From contig NC_043026.1 in assembly GCF_006345805.1 (NCBI RefSeq), forward strand, positions 2,232,001 to 2,296,000: DNA of 64,000 bases, written 5' to 3'. The DNA is from Octopus sinensis (taxonomy: Eukaryota). The notes under the pieces were generated by a model. It was not told the origin of the DNA. It did not search any database and saw nothing but the letters and a program-made list of their open reading frames with translations. Shown here piece by piece: positions 465-64,000 of this stretch (the first letter of the stretch is position 1; each line of letters opens with the position of its first letter). The position numbers and the translations under genes are program-made.

Positions 465-1059
465 CTTCATAATAATTCATCCTAGCAGAACTTCCTGGTG
501 GTCATGACAAAGCCCTTCAAACAATGAGCCTAACTTACATTCAGAATATAACTGGGAAGGAAGCACACAATATCTATTGATTGAAACCAAAAGCCCAAAG
601 GCAAAAAAAATTCTTTTTTAAATAAATAAGATAATTGGTTCTATAACAGATGGACTTATTTAGAAATAGAAGTATATAGAAAATTTTAATAATTTTGAGA
701 AGTCTTACAGGATGAAATGATATAAAGAGGTATAAAAGTATAAAAATATGGCATACACATATACATATATAGCGAAGGCAGGATAGCATGAGAAAATCCA
801 GTTGGCGGCCAGTAGTATTAGTAATAATAATAATAACTCTTGTAGCTCAACTAGTAATAACATGATTCATTAGAACAACCTTGCCGAACAACAATAACCA
901 CAAAAACAATATCAAAAACCTAGAAAACAGAATCCCAAACCATAAGACAAGATTAACCAAACCCAGACACACAAGAATCAACCATGAATTAAAGAAAACT
1001 TATAATAGACAACAAATTAAACAACTACTGCCACAAAATCTAATTGCCACTCCAAGCAC

Positions 1060-1303
1060 CCAGACAAACAGACCTAACCAAAAATATAAAGACCATGACA
1101 TCTTTTGGTATAACCCGATTTGGGACTCCAGCATCTCATCTAATATCACGAAACAGTTTTTCACTGCACTGGATTGCTGCTTCCCTAAAACTGGAGTGTA
1201 CAGCAAAACATTTAACCGTCACACTATAAAACTATCCTATGCAAATTCATCAAACATAGAGCACCATATCCATAGGATTAACAACCGTAAACTGAGACTT
1301 TAA
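1060..1303 (+). mobile_element. Penelope-like element ORF fragment (region between RT and GIY-YIG)
   Basis: IFWYNPIW...FPK...KTFNRHTIKLSY resembles the WFNPP...HFP...KIFNRNTVKISY motif I recall from PLE ORFs. Confidence 0.65.
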
Positions 1304-4499: not shown

Positions 4500-4887
4500 C
4501 ATATATATAAAGACAGAAATATATACGTCTCTAAAGTGATGAGCGTTAAGAGGCATTAAGCAGGAAAATGTGAAATCCTTGGTGACCCTGGCTCCATCTG
4601 TGACTGCAGGGAGCTTGCCTACCTTATCAGCTCATTGAGATAGTGTTTTTGTGACTATTCAGTTGTTTTGACTCTTATTTCTAGCAATACTGGTGCGATT
4701 TGTGCCCTTTCTCAATTTAGTGATGTATATATATCTCTGCCTTTAGGTTGTAAAATTGCAAATTAGCTGCCTGTTTTATATATGTATGTTCCAGCACACG
4801 ATCTCAGATCAAATCCCTTGCTATGTGAGTACATCTCCGTAATATATATATATATATATATATATAGATAGATGTGTATATATATAT

Positions 4888-5012
<125 letters not shown>

Positions 5013-5207
5013 ATATACACACACACAAAATAAGAAAATGGAGGAATAGATTTCTTTCAATCATCAACTACTATATAATACCAATTCATATAATTTATTA
5101 ACTAATTATTTAGGAACATCCAGATCAAACAGAATACTACAGAATAAAACAGTACACATCAATGAGTAAGATAATACCATAAGAACAATGCATATAAATA
5201 TTAAAAT

Positions 5208-5336
5208 GGATCTTACAGCTGTTTCAGCCTGTAGATAAGAGTATCTCATTATGCTCATATTAGTCAGATGTATTGAGGTAATATGCAGTTATAAATGAGT
5301 TACTTATATATATATCTCAAGGCCTCGTCAGAGATC
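5208..5336 (-). ncRNA. Hammerhead ribozyme motif (type I) with long helix II, inside a non-coding element at about 5022-5630
   Basis: gaucu-CUGACGA-GGCC...GGCU-GAAA-CAGCU-GUA-agauc; stem I, palindromic stem III and the GUA triplet are all present. Confidence 0.8.
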
Positions 5337-5713
5337 ATGAAGTACAATTATAAAGGTGTAAAATGAAGATATAAAGTGCAAATATGAATATTAGAGAAGG
5401 TACACATATACAAGAATAAGTATATATACATATATACATGTACATATAAGTGTATATACACCTACATATACATATGTATAAGTATATACATAATAATATA
5501 CATACACATAAGGTTACAGTTAATCAGATCTATATACTAGAATATATATACATACATATATCCACATCAAAGTGTGTAAAACATTTTACCATATAATACA
5601 ATAAATGAATCAATTGCATTGCAATTCTTAGCATCTATGTATTAGCCTTTCTGGGTACTTCACTGGCAGTATATTGGATAAATGATATCCCATAGTGGGT
5701 TACTCTCATAACG

Positions 5714-5773
<60 letters not shown>

Positions 5774-12479: not shown

Positions 12480-14500
12480 TCATTATTATGAGATGATTAA
12501 AAAGTCAGAAAGCAAAGCATACCATGGTTTCGTCATAAGCTATTCATTGCTTTGAATAAACACCGGCTAATGAACGGTGTCAGGTCTAATAGTTCCTGAG
12601 TAAAAAGATTATTATAAGGGAGGTAAGTAGTTCTGGATTTAGTGCAGTTGTGTAAGATATAGAATTATAATGTGAATGGTGTAGGGAGAGTATAGTGATT
12701 AGTGGTGTTAATTGAAGGGTTAATGGTGTTCTGTATTATATTATGTGTTCATATTTAGTTGGGGAAGATATTTGTTGATGAAAATTCCCTCTTTATTCAA
12801 CCTTTGTTGCATTGTGGTGTTCTGTGAACATTGATAGAAGGGGAAGATTTGGAAATTGGGATTAAGATTCCTGGCACACCTTTCTATGTGTTCGCTCACC
12901 TTTAACTGTCTGTATTGTGGGTGACGGATTTGCTCTTTGTGGATGGTGGTTCTTCGACGGAGTGATATTCCTGTTTGTCCAATATAGGGGTTACCACATC
13001 CTAAGCATGTCATGACATAGATTAGATTTTCCGAGGGCAGGTGCGCAGGTGAAATTTGATTTGATCTTAAAATATTTTTCTTGTTTGAAGTGAAATTCTG
13101 AACCCCCCAAAGTGGTGGGGGCATGTCCACAGTTAGGACGACCACATTTTTTTACTTTTGGCTCTGTTGTTAGTGGATATAGTCTTGCGCTGGTTAATTT
13201 TTCAGTGACTTCGGTTGCCTTTTGGTTTTATAATTTTGTGAGAGCTTAAAATTTCGCTCATTGTTTTGTCTGCTGTGAGGATGGGAAGATTTTGGGTGAT
13301 AATGTTGACGGCTTCGTTGTTTCTAGGGTTACGTGTGGAAATGTACGGGAGTATTTTTAAGTCTGGTTTAGTATTTCGGCCGGTTTGCCTTAACATTTGT
13401 ATATCTATTTCCTTAGCTCTTTTGATGCTTTCATTTATTAATGAGATTGGGTTATGTCTTTTAGTTAGTGTTGATCTAAGTTCAAGGAATATTTGTTCAC
13501 GAGTATATGTATCCAAAACTATGGTACAGATTCTTCTCGCTAGATTAAAAGGTATATTAATTTTTATGTGTTTGGGGTGGCAAGAGTTAAATAATAGGTA
13601 TTGTTTAGAATCTGTGGGTTTATAAATGATGTCTGTTTCTATGTGGTTGTTAACTATTTTCATTAAGATGTCTAGAAAAGGGAGTGTTTACTGTTGTGTT
13701 CCATAGTGAATTGTATATTGCTGGTGTATGTTGTTAAGCATTAATTTGAAATAAAGGAGTTTGTCCATGCTGTCTTTCCAAAGTATGAAGCAATCATCCA
13801 ATATCTCTTCCAGTCTCCTTTAAAAGCAATTAAAAGAGGCGCCATATTTTTTCTAGTGATTGGTTGGTATAACTTGAGTTCTAGGTAACCCATTACAAGG
13901 TTTGCAATCACTGGAGCAGCTTTGGTTTCCATTGCGGTTTCCACATTTTTGGTCGATAGTAGTTGTTGTATCGAACATGAAAAAATTGTTCAGCAGGATG
14001 AATTTGAGTGCTTCGATTATAAAACTGGGATCTCTTATGGGTATTTTTCTAGCCAGAAAGTGATTGCTTCTATACCATAGTCGTGTGGGATATTGGTGTG
14101 ACAGATTCACCACATCGAAAAGATACCAGCAGGGATCCTTCCTTTACTGTCTTCGGGGAGGTGGTTCAGCATGTCTAGGTCATCCCTGATAAAGCTTTTC
14201 AATATTTTTAAAAAGGTTTGAGTAATATGTCGAGGGAGTTGCTCAAATGGTGGGTTTCACAAGAAGGGTCTCAGTTTGAGGTCAGTAAGGGGGAGGGACA
14301 TTAATGCATAGGCTGTAGAGACTTTGCAGGCTTCACAAATGTGTGGATTTTTATGTATTTTGGGTAATCGGTAGAATAGGACTAGGACTGTATTTAAAAA
14401 TGGATAAATAGTCTATTTCAAGTTTAGTGAGAACCTTTCCATGAATTTGGAGCAAGGGGGATAAGTTTTTCAGTGTTTTCTGTGGGTTGTAATGTGTTAA
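12480..14500 (-). mobile_element. Degenerate Penelope-like retroelement (RT + GIY-YIG endonuclease)
   Basis: FYRLPKIHK, AMETKAAPVIANLVMG, YKPTDSKQYLLFNSCHP, NLIYVMTCLGCGNPYIGQTG...R...H; many frameshifts; hammerhead half-site GAAACCATGGTA near 12520-12531. Confidence 0.92.
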
Positions 14501-41491: not shown

Positions 41492-42009
41492 CGCGTGCGT
41501 GCGTGCGCGTGCGTGCGTGCGTGTAATATTAGAGGGAAAAGCAAAACCAAGGCAGAACGAGTATTTAGAATGATTTAATTAGAGCAAGGTAAACTTGAAG
41601 CCTTCCAGCCGCCTCTGGGATAACCCAAGTGGTAGGTTAGTTAGTCCACGCACTGGGTATTCCGTCATCAGAGACAAGGTATGAATATTTTAGACTGAGA
41701 AAATTTACAGTTTACATAAGGAATAAAATAGAAGAAAGTATTCTACCTTACTCTTTATTCTTCTGTTTTATTCTTTATAAACTGTAAATTTTCCCTGTCT
41801 AAAATATTCATACCTTGTCTCTAGTGACGGAATACCCAGTGCGTGGACATGCTAACCTAACGGACGACCAACTATAGCACTTACTCAGCGTAACTATTCA
41901 TTTAGACCACAAGCGAACTCACACCACGATATTCTCTCTCTCTCGCTCTCTCTTTATATATATCAGTAACGCCCATAATATAAGTAAGAAATATTTATCA
42001 TAGAAGCAT

Positions 42010-43440
42010 TGAGACTAGATATTTTACACATATTTAGATATATTTAATATCTATCTTTCGTGAAAATTCCAGATGATTGCAGTAAACACGTTGTAAGTTA
42101 CGAGGAAATAAATGAAGAATCTTCCAAATTGCAACAGCCAAACGTTAAGGGTCACTTAGAAAAGCAATGAGAAATGGAACAAGAACAAAAAGGAAACCCT
42201 TACTCTTAAGATTTTGTGACCATCCCTTTTGCTATCAATGCAAAAGAATGGAATAATATTGTTCCATTCGTTTTTCAATAATTCCCAGAGTTCATCTTGG
42301 TTCTTTGGATTCCTCCTTCGCGCTCCATCTCCAATAATCTTCCAAAGGTTTTCTATAGGGTTGAGGGCAGGACTTTCAGGTGGCCCGTCCATGAGATCAA
42401 CCCCTTCATCACACAAAAAATCTTTGATTCTCTTCATAGAGTGTTAGGGAGCGTTGTCCTGCACGAAGATAGGAGGTTGAACTGGCGAGGATCGGAGATG
42501 TGGAAGGGCATGTTGTCTAGGAAACTACTTGTAGATTTCAGCATTGAGAGTCCCTTGTAGGCGAATAAATGGAACAGGACTAGCAGCAGACATCATTCCC
42601 CGTATCATTACGCTGCCTCCATATTTCACTGTCTTGTTCACACATGCACGAGATAGCCTTTCGCCACTTTTTCGTCGGAAGTACATATCACCATCGGAAC
42701 CGATCACATTAAACCTTGATTCATCGCTGAAATGAACCTGAGACCACTGTTCTTCTGTCCAAACGATATGTTCGTGAGCGAAATGAAAACAGGATCTTCG
42801 ATTCTTCTTGGAGATCAGAGGTTTCTTTGCCGGTGCTCGAGCAAGCAAACCAGAACCTCGTAACCTCCGAGAAACTGTTTTGCGCGATACGTTGACAACG
42901 GAAGTAGAGCTAAACTCAGGGAATATCTCAGCAGCACTCTTAAACCTATTTTTCAGTCACTTGCTAACATTAATACGATCCTGTCTTGGTGAAGCTTTGC
43001 AAGGTTTACCGGTTTTGGGTGTAGCATCTGTCGATCCGGATGACTTAAAACTAGTAACAATTTGTTGCACAACACTTCTAGACCTTCCTACAGTATTTGC
43101 TATCACAGAATTTTATTTGCCCTCTCGGTGAAGGTACACAGGCGTTTGTTTTTCCCTACCGGTCGTCTGTCACAAGCCACCATGTTGACAGTTGAATGGT
43201 TCAATAATGTGAAATCATAAGAAGTAACTGTTAGCCCATTAATAGTCTTCTAAGCAACAAATACCTCGGTTAGTAGTTCATCTTTTCTGAGTGACTTAAC
43301 TTTTGGCCGCTGTAGTTTGGAAGATTGTTTGTTTATTTCCTCATAATTTATGGAATATTTATTCGATTCACTTGAATTTTTCACGAAAGATAGATATTAG
43401 ATATATCTAAATATGTGTAAAATATCTTCTCTCAACGTTT
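42010..43440 (-). mobile_element. Tc1-family DNA transposon, near full length, frameshifted transposase
   Basis: TGKPCK, KKPLISKKNR...FA, WSQVHFSDESRF, QDNAP, PESPALNPIENLW (DD34E type); long TIRs (tttacacatatttagatatat...ttcgtgaaaa and its inverse at about 43370-43421). Confidence 0.92.
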
Positions 43441-48972: not shown

Positions 48973-50205
48973 TTGGGTTGTCCGGAAAGTTTGTGCCAAT
49001 TTATAGTAGCTTACCTTTCGACTTAGTTCAGAACATGGTTGTGTCCATAAAGTAGGATTTGACTACACCTCCATTTAGAGCACAGTTTAAGCTATCTTTT
49101 CGTGGAAGAAGGTTTATGTTCCTATAACCTGTGTTAATTCTGTAACCCTTTAAAATGGAAGAAAGTTCATTTTCAATACTTGATGGTTTTCTTTTACCGT
49201 AAAGGGAAAATGCTTCACAAGCAACCAAAGAAATATGCGCAGTTTATGGTGATGTTTCTTTATCTGAAAGAACTGTACGGAAGTGGTTCACAAGGTTCCG
49301 AGCTGGAGATTGTAGCCTTATTGATAAAGAGCAATCAGGCAGACCATCCACTACAGATGATGACCAAATCAAGTCATTAATTGAGAATAACCCACATTGG
49401 ACAACCCGAGAATTGGCAGAAAGCCTCAACCTATCAAAATCCGTTATTCATGAGCACCTGGTAAAGTTTGGGTACACAAAACGCTACGACGTTTGGGTAC
49501 CACAAGAGTTGAGTGAGAAGAATCTTTTGGAGTGAAAATGCGTCTTTTTTAAAGCAAATTGTGACAGGTGATGAGAAATGGATTATCTACTGAAATGTTC
49601 AGAGAAAGCGATCCTGGAGTAAGCGACATGAGCCACCCTTAGCGACCCCCGAAGTGCGTCTTCACCCTAAAAAAGTCTTACTTTGTATCTGGTGGAATTG
49701 GAAAGGAATTCTGTACTATGAACTACCAGACAATAAATTCTGAGGAATATTGCTCACAACTGGACAAGTTAAAAGCAGCAATTCAAGAGAAACGTCCAGA
49801 ATTGGCCAACAGGAAGGGTGTTGTTTTCCAACATGATAATGCAAGACCGCACGTTTCTTTGGAAACCAGACAAAAATTGCTGCAGCTTGGCTGGGATGTG
49901 TTACCCCACCCTCCATATTCACCAGATATTGCTCCTTTGGATTTCTACTTATTCAGGTCTCTGCAGAATAGTCTTAATGGTAAAAATTTAAATTCCTTGG
50001 ATGACATAAAAAGATACCTTGATGAATTCTTGGCCATGAAACCACCTCACTTCTGGGAAGAGGGTATTTTCAAGTTAAAGGAAAGATGGAGACGCATTGT
50101 GCAACAAAATGGTTCATATTTGGTTCATTAAAAATGTAAATGGCAAGTATTTATTGACCTTTTACTTTCCTTTAAAAATCGGCACAAACTTTCTGGACAA
50201 CTAAA
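48973..50205 (+). mobile_element. Mariner transposon, near full length, pseudogenised
   Basis: TA TSDs; TIRs TTGGGTTGTCCGGAAAGTTTGTGCC / GGCACAAACTTTCTGGACAACTAAA; WVPQEL, IVTGDEKW, HDNARPH, HPPYSPDIAPLD (DD34D type); internal stops. Confidence 0.95.
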
Positions 50206-58578: not shown

Positions 58579-58651
<73 letters not shown>

Positions 58652-58853
58652 AAAGAAAATGGAGGAATACACTTTAATCAATAATCAACTACCAGGTAAT
58701 ACCCATTTACATAATTTATTAACCAACTACATAGGAACATCAAGATCAAACACAATAATACAGAACAAAACAGTGCACATCAATGAGTAATATGATACAA
58801 TAAGTACAATACGTATAAATAAATATAAATAAATATAAATATAAATATAAATT

Positions 58854-58984
58854 AGATCTTACAGCTGTTTCAGCCATGTAGATATGAATATCTCATTATG
58901 CTCATATTAGCCAGGTGTGTTAAGGTAATATGTGGTTATAAATGAGATACTTATATATATATCCCAAGGCCTCTTCAGAGATTA
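58854..58984 (-). ncRNA. Hammerhead ribozyme motif, homologue of 5208-5336, inside an element at about 58646-59360
   Basis: aucu-CUGAAGA-GGCC...GGCU-GAAA-CAGCU-GUA-agau; 59164-59295 is an inverted copy of 58646-58760. Confidence 0.8.
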
Positions 58985-59375
58985 TAAAGTACAATTCAAA
59001 TATGAATATAAGAGAAGGTACACATATACAAGAATGAGTACATATACATAATATGTAATATATACATACATATAAGTGTATATACACATGCACCTACATA
59101 TATATAAGTATATACATAATAATATACATACATATAAGGTTACAGTTAGTCAAATCAATATATTAGAATATACATTCTATTGTGTTTGATCTTGATGTTC
59201 CTATGTAGTTGGTTAATGAATTATGTGAATGGGTATTATCTGGTAGTTGATTATTGATTAAGGTGTATTCCTCCATTTTCTTATTTTGTATTATGAATTT
59301 GAGGTAAAACATTTTACCTTTGCCCATATAATACAATAAATGAATTAATTGCATCGCAATTATATATTATGTATA

Positions 59376-63567: not shown

Positions 63568-64000
63568 AGGTTATAAGAGGTAATGGTGTCATTGAGACCC
63601 AAAGGTGTCAGGTAATGCTGAATAAGTGCTATAGACAGACCATAGTTAAGTTCCAGATTTGGTGATTTTGAGAAAAAGGGGTTCAATGCCTGTCATATGT
63701 CAGTGTGTGTACATAAGAATTTTTTGTGTAATGAGATAAAAAAACCCAAGGCTGTGTAGATATGAGAACATTTATAGATAGAAGGTCTTACAGCTGCTTG
63801 TAGGATATGTATTGATTATATCCCTTCATCGGAGACGGTGTGAGAGGATGGTTAAGTAATAATTAATTTAGATGGGATATAAAATAGAGAGTGAGGTGGA
63901 GGAAAGAAAATAGATGTGAGATATGTAGGGATATTGCATTTGTAGATGCATTTTTTAGGCAGAATGGTATATCTGTAAGATTCCAATACCTTATGAGAAA

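Follow-up and report, generated by a model that had tools for sequence, protein, structure and literature searches.

The window analysed here, 64,000 nucleotides of the Octopus sinensis genome, contains three insertions of one retroelement family, each with a type I hammerhead motif on the minus strand (Table 1). For the first of them, the initial annotation had given an extent of 5022-5630; the insertion really reaches 5712, and its last part (5576-5712) is an inverted piece of the element's tail. The homologous element that had been reported at 58646-59360 is present, and a third copy at 38106-38760 had been overlooked. The longest ATG frames in the first and the 58.6 kb copies have 50 and 63 codons and (TA)n flanks are seen at both, so that neither is protein-coding and both adjoin (TA)n, as had been stated. 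A short interspersed repeat, present in multiple copies, neighbours the element in the window.

Table 1. Parts of the three insertions, in window coordinates.
Feature	Position	Strand	Evidence
5′-truncated 3′ end (3′ UTR/pseudo-LTR) of Hydra-type Penelope-like element, subfamily A	5026..5575	-	84% to 3′ end of ORF-bearing L117; 3′ end common to 16 of 30 loci
Inverted tail piece of the same element, 5′ end of insertion	5576..5712	+	92% to tail directly after 3′ end in L117; direct orientation in 14 of 30 loci
(TA)n target at 3′ end of subfamily A insertion	4842..5017		
(TA)n beyond inverted tail, other end of subfamily A insertion	5713..5740		
Type I hammerhead motif, subfamily A copy	5209..5336	-	sequence; descriptor and shuffle control
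Stem I 5′ strand GAUCU	5336-5332	-	sequence
Core CUGACGA	5325..5331	-	sequence; 93% identity over 8 subfamily representatives
Helix II, 99 nt, GGCC at start, GGCU at end	5226..5324	-	sequence
Helix II predicted architecture: proximal and inner stems, with a one-sided internal loop and a 10-bp middle stem between them	5226..5324	-	folding z -3.2; RNAalifold and pair counts, 20 copies
GAA	5225-5223	-	sequence
Palindromic stem III ACAGCUGU	5222-5215	-	sequence; self-duplex -11.1 kcal/mol
GUA, predicted cut	after 5214	-	sequence
GAA, stem III ACAGCUGU and cleavage nucleotide, whole block	5214..5225	-	
Stem I 3′ strand AGAUC	5213-5209	-	sequence
Third copy, subfamily F2	about 38106..38760	-	92% to ORF-bearing L154, 77% to intact L131
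Third-copy hammerhead core	38395-38389 and 38303-38292	-	helix II 85 nt, GUC site
Second copy, subfamily B	58651..59175	-	93-94% to ORF-bearing L109
Second-copy hammerhead core	58978-58972 and 58871-58860	-	helix II 100 nt, stem I 4 bp
Inverted piece of second copy (3′ end and part of tail)	59178..59360	+	96% to L109

The motif of the first copy has CUGANGA, GAAA and NUH in order, with three helices, and is open at stem I, as in type I hammerheads. Each part that had been claimed at 5208-5336 was located in the sequence in the claimed order, and the two inner helix II pairings that had been named (gagaua/uaucu and aguaacucauu/aaugagauacu) are present in the predicted fold. We used a descriptor that combines the core, stems I and II of at least 3 bp, a palindromic stem III and a helix II of up to 150 nt; it found three motifs in the window (at 5331, 38395, and 58978) and none in 200 block-shuffled windows. 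Rfam gave no hammerhead family among the matches listed for the whole window (150 of 188), nor among the four matches to 5150-5400 with E up to 10, its hits being low-complexity and microRNA-like; this miss is expected with an insert so long and is not counted against the hammerhead. The motif is real, and sequence, descriptor and folding (see below) agree on a type I hammerhead with a palindromic stem III and a structured long helix II.

A DNA search of the genome returned 1834 first-look candidates, of which 40 were scored, and we mapped 30 loci (three of them duplicating other loci) on a natural long copy, L117; since the loci were picked by likeness to 5040-5400, very short copies are under-counted among them. 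A 20-mer of the hammerhead has 1573 exact matches in the genome, and the reversed 20-mer has none. The 3′ ends of the copies fall at two fixed positions, roughly 200 and 385 nt beyond the cut site and at (TA)n (on the L117 map, +209 to +216 in 16 of the 30 loci and +396 in 14), and a TA-rich repeat follows the element directly in most of the loci, with three or four exceptions. Their 5′ ends are dispersed between -140 and -1433 in all 30, the pattern of random 5′ truncation; 11 of the 30 contain inverted pieces. Contigs of four runs (organisms A-D) cover the motif region, with bins at a depth of 25-29 of 29, which shows presence only.

Upstream, the homology continues through kilobases of AT-rich non-coding sequence (a long 3′ UTR) into same-sense reverse transcriptase (RT) and GIY-YIG ORFs. 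In L117, which is 84% identical to the subfamily A copy over 5025-5575 and 92% over the tail (84-92% overall), the A-type 3′ end is joined to a 781-aa frame and, in addition, GIY-YIG. L109, 93-96% identical to the 58.6 kb copy, shows the order inverted copy, truncated pseudo-LTR (pLTR), tail, RT ORF, 3′ UTR, hammerhead, tail, and is without the endonuclease through an internal deletion; L154 is 92% identical to the third copy. In a sister subfamily (F), L130 and L131 (98.7% identical to each other) have intact 960-aa ORFs and pLTRs with the same hammerhead on either side, at distances of 5570 and 5602 nt, with the hammerhead 514 nt upstream of the ATG in this type of unit; their motif has 148 exact genome matches and is young. 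Twenty loci were fetched around those GIY-YIG hits that were best or longest, and 17 of them held the hammerhead region of the family (L118, L121, and L123 have only other pLTR pieces, L124 and L128 none, and L120 and L131 were counted by motif).

These loci decide against the first reading, by which the window element would belong to a non-autonomous, retrozyme-like family of its own that Penelope elements mobilise in trans. Three things would suit such a family: the copies are mostly short and without coding capacity, internal deletions are found in some of the long ones (L109), and no intact ORF of subfamily A itself was seen among the loci examined. But the same 3′ end is joined in continuous, in-sense homology to RT/GIY-YIG ORFs (L117, L109, L130, and L131), the 30 loci share no common 5′ end, and no short head-to-tail tandem units (150-450 nt, with a hammerhead each) occur among the copies examined. 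Apparent tandem arrays on C9539 and C11013 (L094-L099) turned out to be duplications in an ankyrin gene region, in which ankyrin-repeat exons carry along 3′ UTR fragments of the element. We therefore hold the non-autonomous reading to be very improbable and already largely refuted, while the proposed link to Penelope-like elements is borne out: the window element is the 5′-truncated 3′ end of an autonomous Hydra-type Penelope-like retrotransposon. The element at 12480-14500, which had been named as an example of the mobiliser, has to be dropped, since it is Neptune-like and gives no tblastn match to the family ORF. A Neptune-like ORF beside L066/L108 is antisense and was not seen near other copies, and we take its position as chance.

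The coding element has a single ORF, with RT followed by a C-terminal GIY-YIG, flanked by pLTRs with the tail and inverted 5′ copies (L130, L131, and L109); the Pfam match to GIY-YIG is weak (E 0.0067, below the cut-off). RIRWR/RIRWK and HSDKT (DKT, not DKG) are found in L109, L130, and L131, and the ORF also has YRDD; L130 and L131 have a CxCX5C linker and CxxC and CxH around the E and N, and, as judged by eye, no CCHH. No CxCX5C pattern turned up in L143-L146, families with 55-nt arms, or in L139. DKT or DKS occurs in 56 of 57 database relatives and DKG in none, and the Neptune features (CX2-5CxxC linker, CCHH, and DKG) are absent from the family ORF. [quoted passage not shown] By its motif set the predicted protein is of Hydra type. 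A quick RT tree of 67 rows was made solely from this genome's ORFs and from unnamed database proteins (those 57 of 150 hits that cover more than 400 residues); in it the nine ORFs of long-armed elements group together (SH-aLRT 95), with the short-armed L101 placed elsewhere. This group may be just an octopus radiation, since its members are from a single genome. One database protein, labelled Octopus sinensis, is 99% identical to the family ORF, and the closest named relatives are from Argonauta hians; in both species Hydra ORF fragments (P0001 and P0008) carry the annotation "GATA zinc finger domain-containing protein 14-like."

Other repeats were seen elsewhere in the window. The element at 12480-14500 (minus strand), which we take to be of the Neptune clade, is a decayed Penelope element with many stops and frameshifts and a decayed linker and CCHH; its hammerhead, at about 12515-12555 (minus strand), is likewise decayed and has a short arm and a CAUG palindrome. 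At 63706-64000 (minus strand) lies a decayed copy of another repeat family, whose hammerhead combines the shared stem III ACAGCUGU with a CCGAUGA core and has about 21-27 nt in helix II; this family also occurs at L168, L170, L172, L183, L184, L189, L191-L193, L195, and L197, and no ORF lies within 1.5 kb of it in 11 loci. An open frame at 866-1303 (plus strand) resembles a Penelope-like thumb/linker fragment and has no Pfam match. A near-perfect 205-nt inverted repeat at 41644-41848, similar to a small DNA transposon, ranks first among the Rfam matches but stays below threshold. The frames at 49203-50131 (plus strand) and 42525-42956 (minus strand) were judged by eye to be remnants of Mariner/Tc1-like transposases, and a short AACCCT-type repeat array lies at 1965-2054.

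The second arm of a hammerhead usually has 10-25 bases. Helix II in this family has 85-112 nt: 99 in subfamily A, 100 in B, 85 in F2, and 112 in L152. Over eight subfamily representatives, identity is 93% in the core, 67% in helix II, and 59% and 63% in the flanks, the core being more conserved than the flanks between subfamilies; within subfamily A the core has two variants in 392 cells and no singletons in 14 columns, compared with about 0.3 per column elsewhere, a difference that is nominal. The predicted fold of helix II in the 5209-5336 motif beats 300 of 300 dinucleotide shuffles (z -3.2). Eight of 12 motifs reach z -2.6 to -5.7 and the other four are weak (-1.6 to -2.0); 16 flanks given the same folding test ranged from -1.95 to +1.13. 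Among 20 loci of Hydra families that are more distant, 55-60 nt arms are found in two further lineages, a 112-nt arm in L152, and a short arm in L101. L137-L151 are further Hydra families with frames of 887-1124 aa, an Asn-rich linker, and a 55-60 nt helix II, apparently in many young copies.

Covariation was examined in 20 complete copies chosen from 65 distinct motif sequences, together with L154 and L156, and with the 112-nt L152 left out. RNAalifold gave 20 pairs over the 20 copies, 6 of them changed on both sides. In a 37-pair structure, 89.5% of the cells are paired (31-47% in slid controls), and 8 of the 37 pairs (7 in helix II) have changes on both sides, a number reached in 7 of 500 shuffles; there are 26 double-change cells, and 0 of 500 shuffles reach as many. 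The compensatory changes in helix II that the initial annotation had proposed to look for were thus found by both RNAalifold and pair counts, in related copies; by our count they come from about six independent events, several via wobble or mismatch. No trace of A-to-I editing was seen, there being no A>G excess in helix II of 28 A copies (4 of 37 singletons). The conserved rod of helix II is apparently a ribozyme variant under structural selection. One might instead read the insert as a spliceosomal intron, with a short hammerhead left once it is spliced out: in subfamily A it has a branch-point-like CUAAU and ends in CUACAG right before GCUGAAAC, and the intron of the D. virilis Penelope touches that element's hammerhead (PMC4209133). 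Of the 37 A-type motifs, however, 33 have the terminal AG, as against just 1 of the 24 from other subfamilies, and the insert covaries as a stem; we reject the intron, which is scarcely credible on this evidence.

Stem III varies by family (ACAGCUGU, ACGAUCGU, ACAAUUGU, and ACACGUGU) yet is always palindromic, although self-pairing requires wobble pairs in one family (ACAUGUGU). The self-complementarity extends to its two central bases, which are unable to pair within a single molecule. A self-complementary stem III is a known signature of dimer cleavage (PMC4209133 and PMC6765202), and a stem that changes but stays self-complementary fits cleavage as a dimer. In each of the 12 motifs the predicted active monomer is less stable than the best fold, by 1.2-7.9 kcal/mol, and in 11 of them the best fold mispairs the core; the intermolecular stem III duplex has -6 to -11 kcal/mol.

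We looked for 5′ ends of copies at the cut site and found no excess over the control: 1 against 35 read-through copies in subfamily A, 0 against 148 in subfamily F, and in B-E 3 against 2 in a control window 12-13 nt upstream, with 30 of 48 hits inspected. A promising lead from L002 did not survive comparison with the control. Since there is no such excess, we infer cleavage from conservation only. Nearly every copy extends across the site to one of the two downstream 3′ ends, so the template was uncut or rejoined. Several fold-back insertions consist of two short inverted copies head to head (L166; L164/L165; L174/L175; L185/L186), and in L166 both arms start at or beside the cut site. That nearly all copies read across the site without an excess of ends speaks for a motif that no longer cleaves and whose fold is retained in the 3′ UTR as a signal for protein binding or packaging; subfamilies D and E, where CCGA replaces CUGA, and subfamily F, with only 2-3 contiguous stem I pairs, point the same way. 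Such a loss is improbable, however: families with RTs of only about 45-50% identity have retained the catalytic core, the palindrome and the GUA or GUC cleavage triplet.

The reading we consider probable is that the window element derives by truncation from the 3′ end of a Hydra-type Penelope-like element that encodes protein, and has a conserved type I hammerhead, whose paired helix II of about 100 nt likely keeps the core closed and possibly binds the element's protein, and which likely cleaves only as a dimer. From what is known of Penelope biology, the ORF protein would nick (TA)n and start reverse transcription at one end of the tail or the other, and would usually stop early, giving short non-coding copies such as 5026-5575. 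In a pLTR-ORF-pLTR transcript, the two hammerheads could pair via their stem III palindromes and excise a unit-length RNA. Excision may be slow or protein-controlled, as almost all inserted copies read across an uncut or rejoined site.

What the long arm does within such a dimer is a separate question. The same active dimer ribozyme could have a helix II that is a tolerated expansion, paired only so that the core closes, and we give this nearly an even chance. Other parts are long in this lineage as well, with ORFs of 887-1124 aa (about 700-725 aa in most full-length database relatives), units of 3.6-5.6 kb (under 3 kb in PMC8557442), and a tail of 175-183 nt (as against 30-40); arm length is variable (55-60, 85, 100, and 112 nt) with little likeness between classes, and (TA) slippage occurs in the helix II loop. 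On the other hand, all 20 copies, which span subfamilies A to F and have flanks only about 60% alike, agree in six columns of the middle stem (CUCAUU/AAUGAG), at about 20 nt from the core, and the one-sided internal loop after the proximal stem recurs in the 55-60 nt class. The invariant middle stem thus suggests a role for the arm beyond closing the core, while the general lengthening of ORF, UTR, and tail suggests tolerance. A stronger form, rather unlikely at present, is that in a single lineage of octopus Hydra elements the 55-112 nt helix II would be an RNA domain to which the RT/endonuclease protein binds and which gates cleavage; if true, it would be a natural protein-switched ribozyme in more than 1500 copies, missed by standard descriptors, with its switch at the site where engineers graft aptamers.

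The young intact element (L130 and L131, with 148 exact motif copies) offers a protein and RNA pair for the open question of what hammerheads do in Penelope-like elements, and the arm series of one genome (about 10, 25, 55-60, 85, 100, and 112 nt) permits a direct test of the contribution of helix II. Published core-search descriptors permitted spacers of 7-17 nt (PMC8557442); together with the Rfam miss, this means that "hammerhead-less" elements may hide long-armed ones. For annotation, these repeats are to be treated as Penelope ends and not as retrozymes, and one ORF fragment of the family goes under the label "GATA zinc finger domain-containing protein."

The kind of element is known, as Hydra elements have already been described in Octopus bimaculoides, and the ribozyme variant with an arm of about 100 nt is apparently undescribed: in the literature searched, as far as its accessible text goes (Repbase and Dfam being outside the scope), no arm of 85-112 nt is reported, nor any cephalopod hammerhead beyond PMC8557442. 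The Hydra clade, including Hydra-1_Obim of O. bimaculoides, is similar in its RWK-type motif and DKT, CxCX5C, C-terminal GIY-YIG without CCHH, and (TA)n target, and in having a hammerhead near the 3′ end, a near-palindromic stem III, and inverted 5′-truncated copies (PMC8557442). It differs in unit length (under 3 kb, compared with 5.6 kb and a tail of about 180 nt here) and in helix II, as 26 of 26 rows of File S2 of that paper have stems of 3-7 bp and loops of 3-10 nt, whereas the arms here have 85-112 nt (55-60 in the sister families). A short hammerhead like that of Hydra-1_Obim is present in this genome in a separate, distant family, with 31 motif hits. Known pLTR hammerheads with a "larger than usual" helix II share the pLTR location, the palindromic stem III, predicted dimer cleavage, and mostly solitary truncated copies; their larger helix II has 6-8 bp, in contrast to a multi-stem rod of about 30 bp here, and the "long helix II" of viral hammerheads likewise means 6-8 bp. 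The non-canonical PLE-X1_sMoe of Selaginella has the largest helix II in File S2, about 53 nt and near the 55-60 nt class, but it is an endonuclease-less plant element of another clade, with half the length of the window motif, known from a table that gives no covariation (PMC8557442). Non-LTR retrozymes share the type I hammerhead, non-coding copies, and kinship to Penelope pLTRs, and are 150-450 nt head-to-tail repeats without an ORF, unlike the dispersed truncated ends of an ORF-bearing element found here (PMC7229834; bioRxiv 10.64898/2026.07.22.740005). The Poseidon element PAc of Anolis also has a tail between two reverse-transcription starts and an uncut RNA template, with no RNA ends seen at the cut site; its hammerhead requires protein, and cleavage is dispensable for insertion in vitro (PMC11167929). 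The PAc ribozyme is short, protein-assisted, and overlaps the ORF start, whereas the octopus hammerhead, with its long arm, lies well upstream of the ATG.
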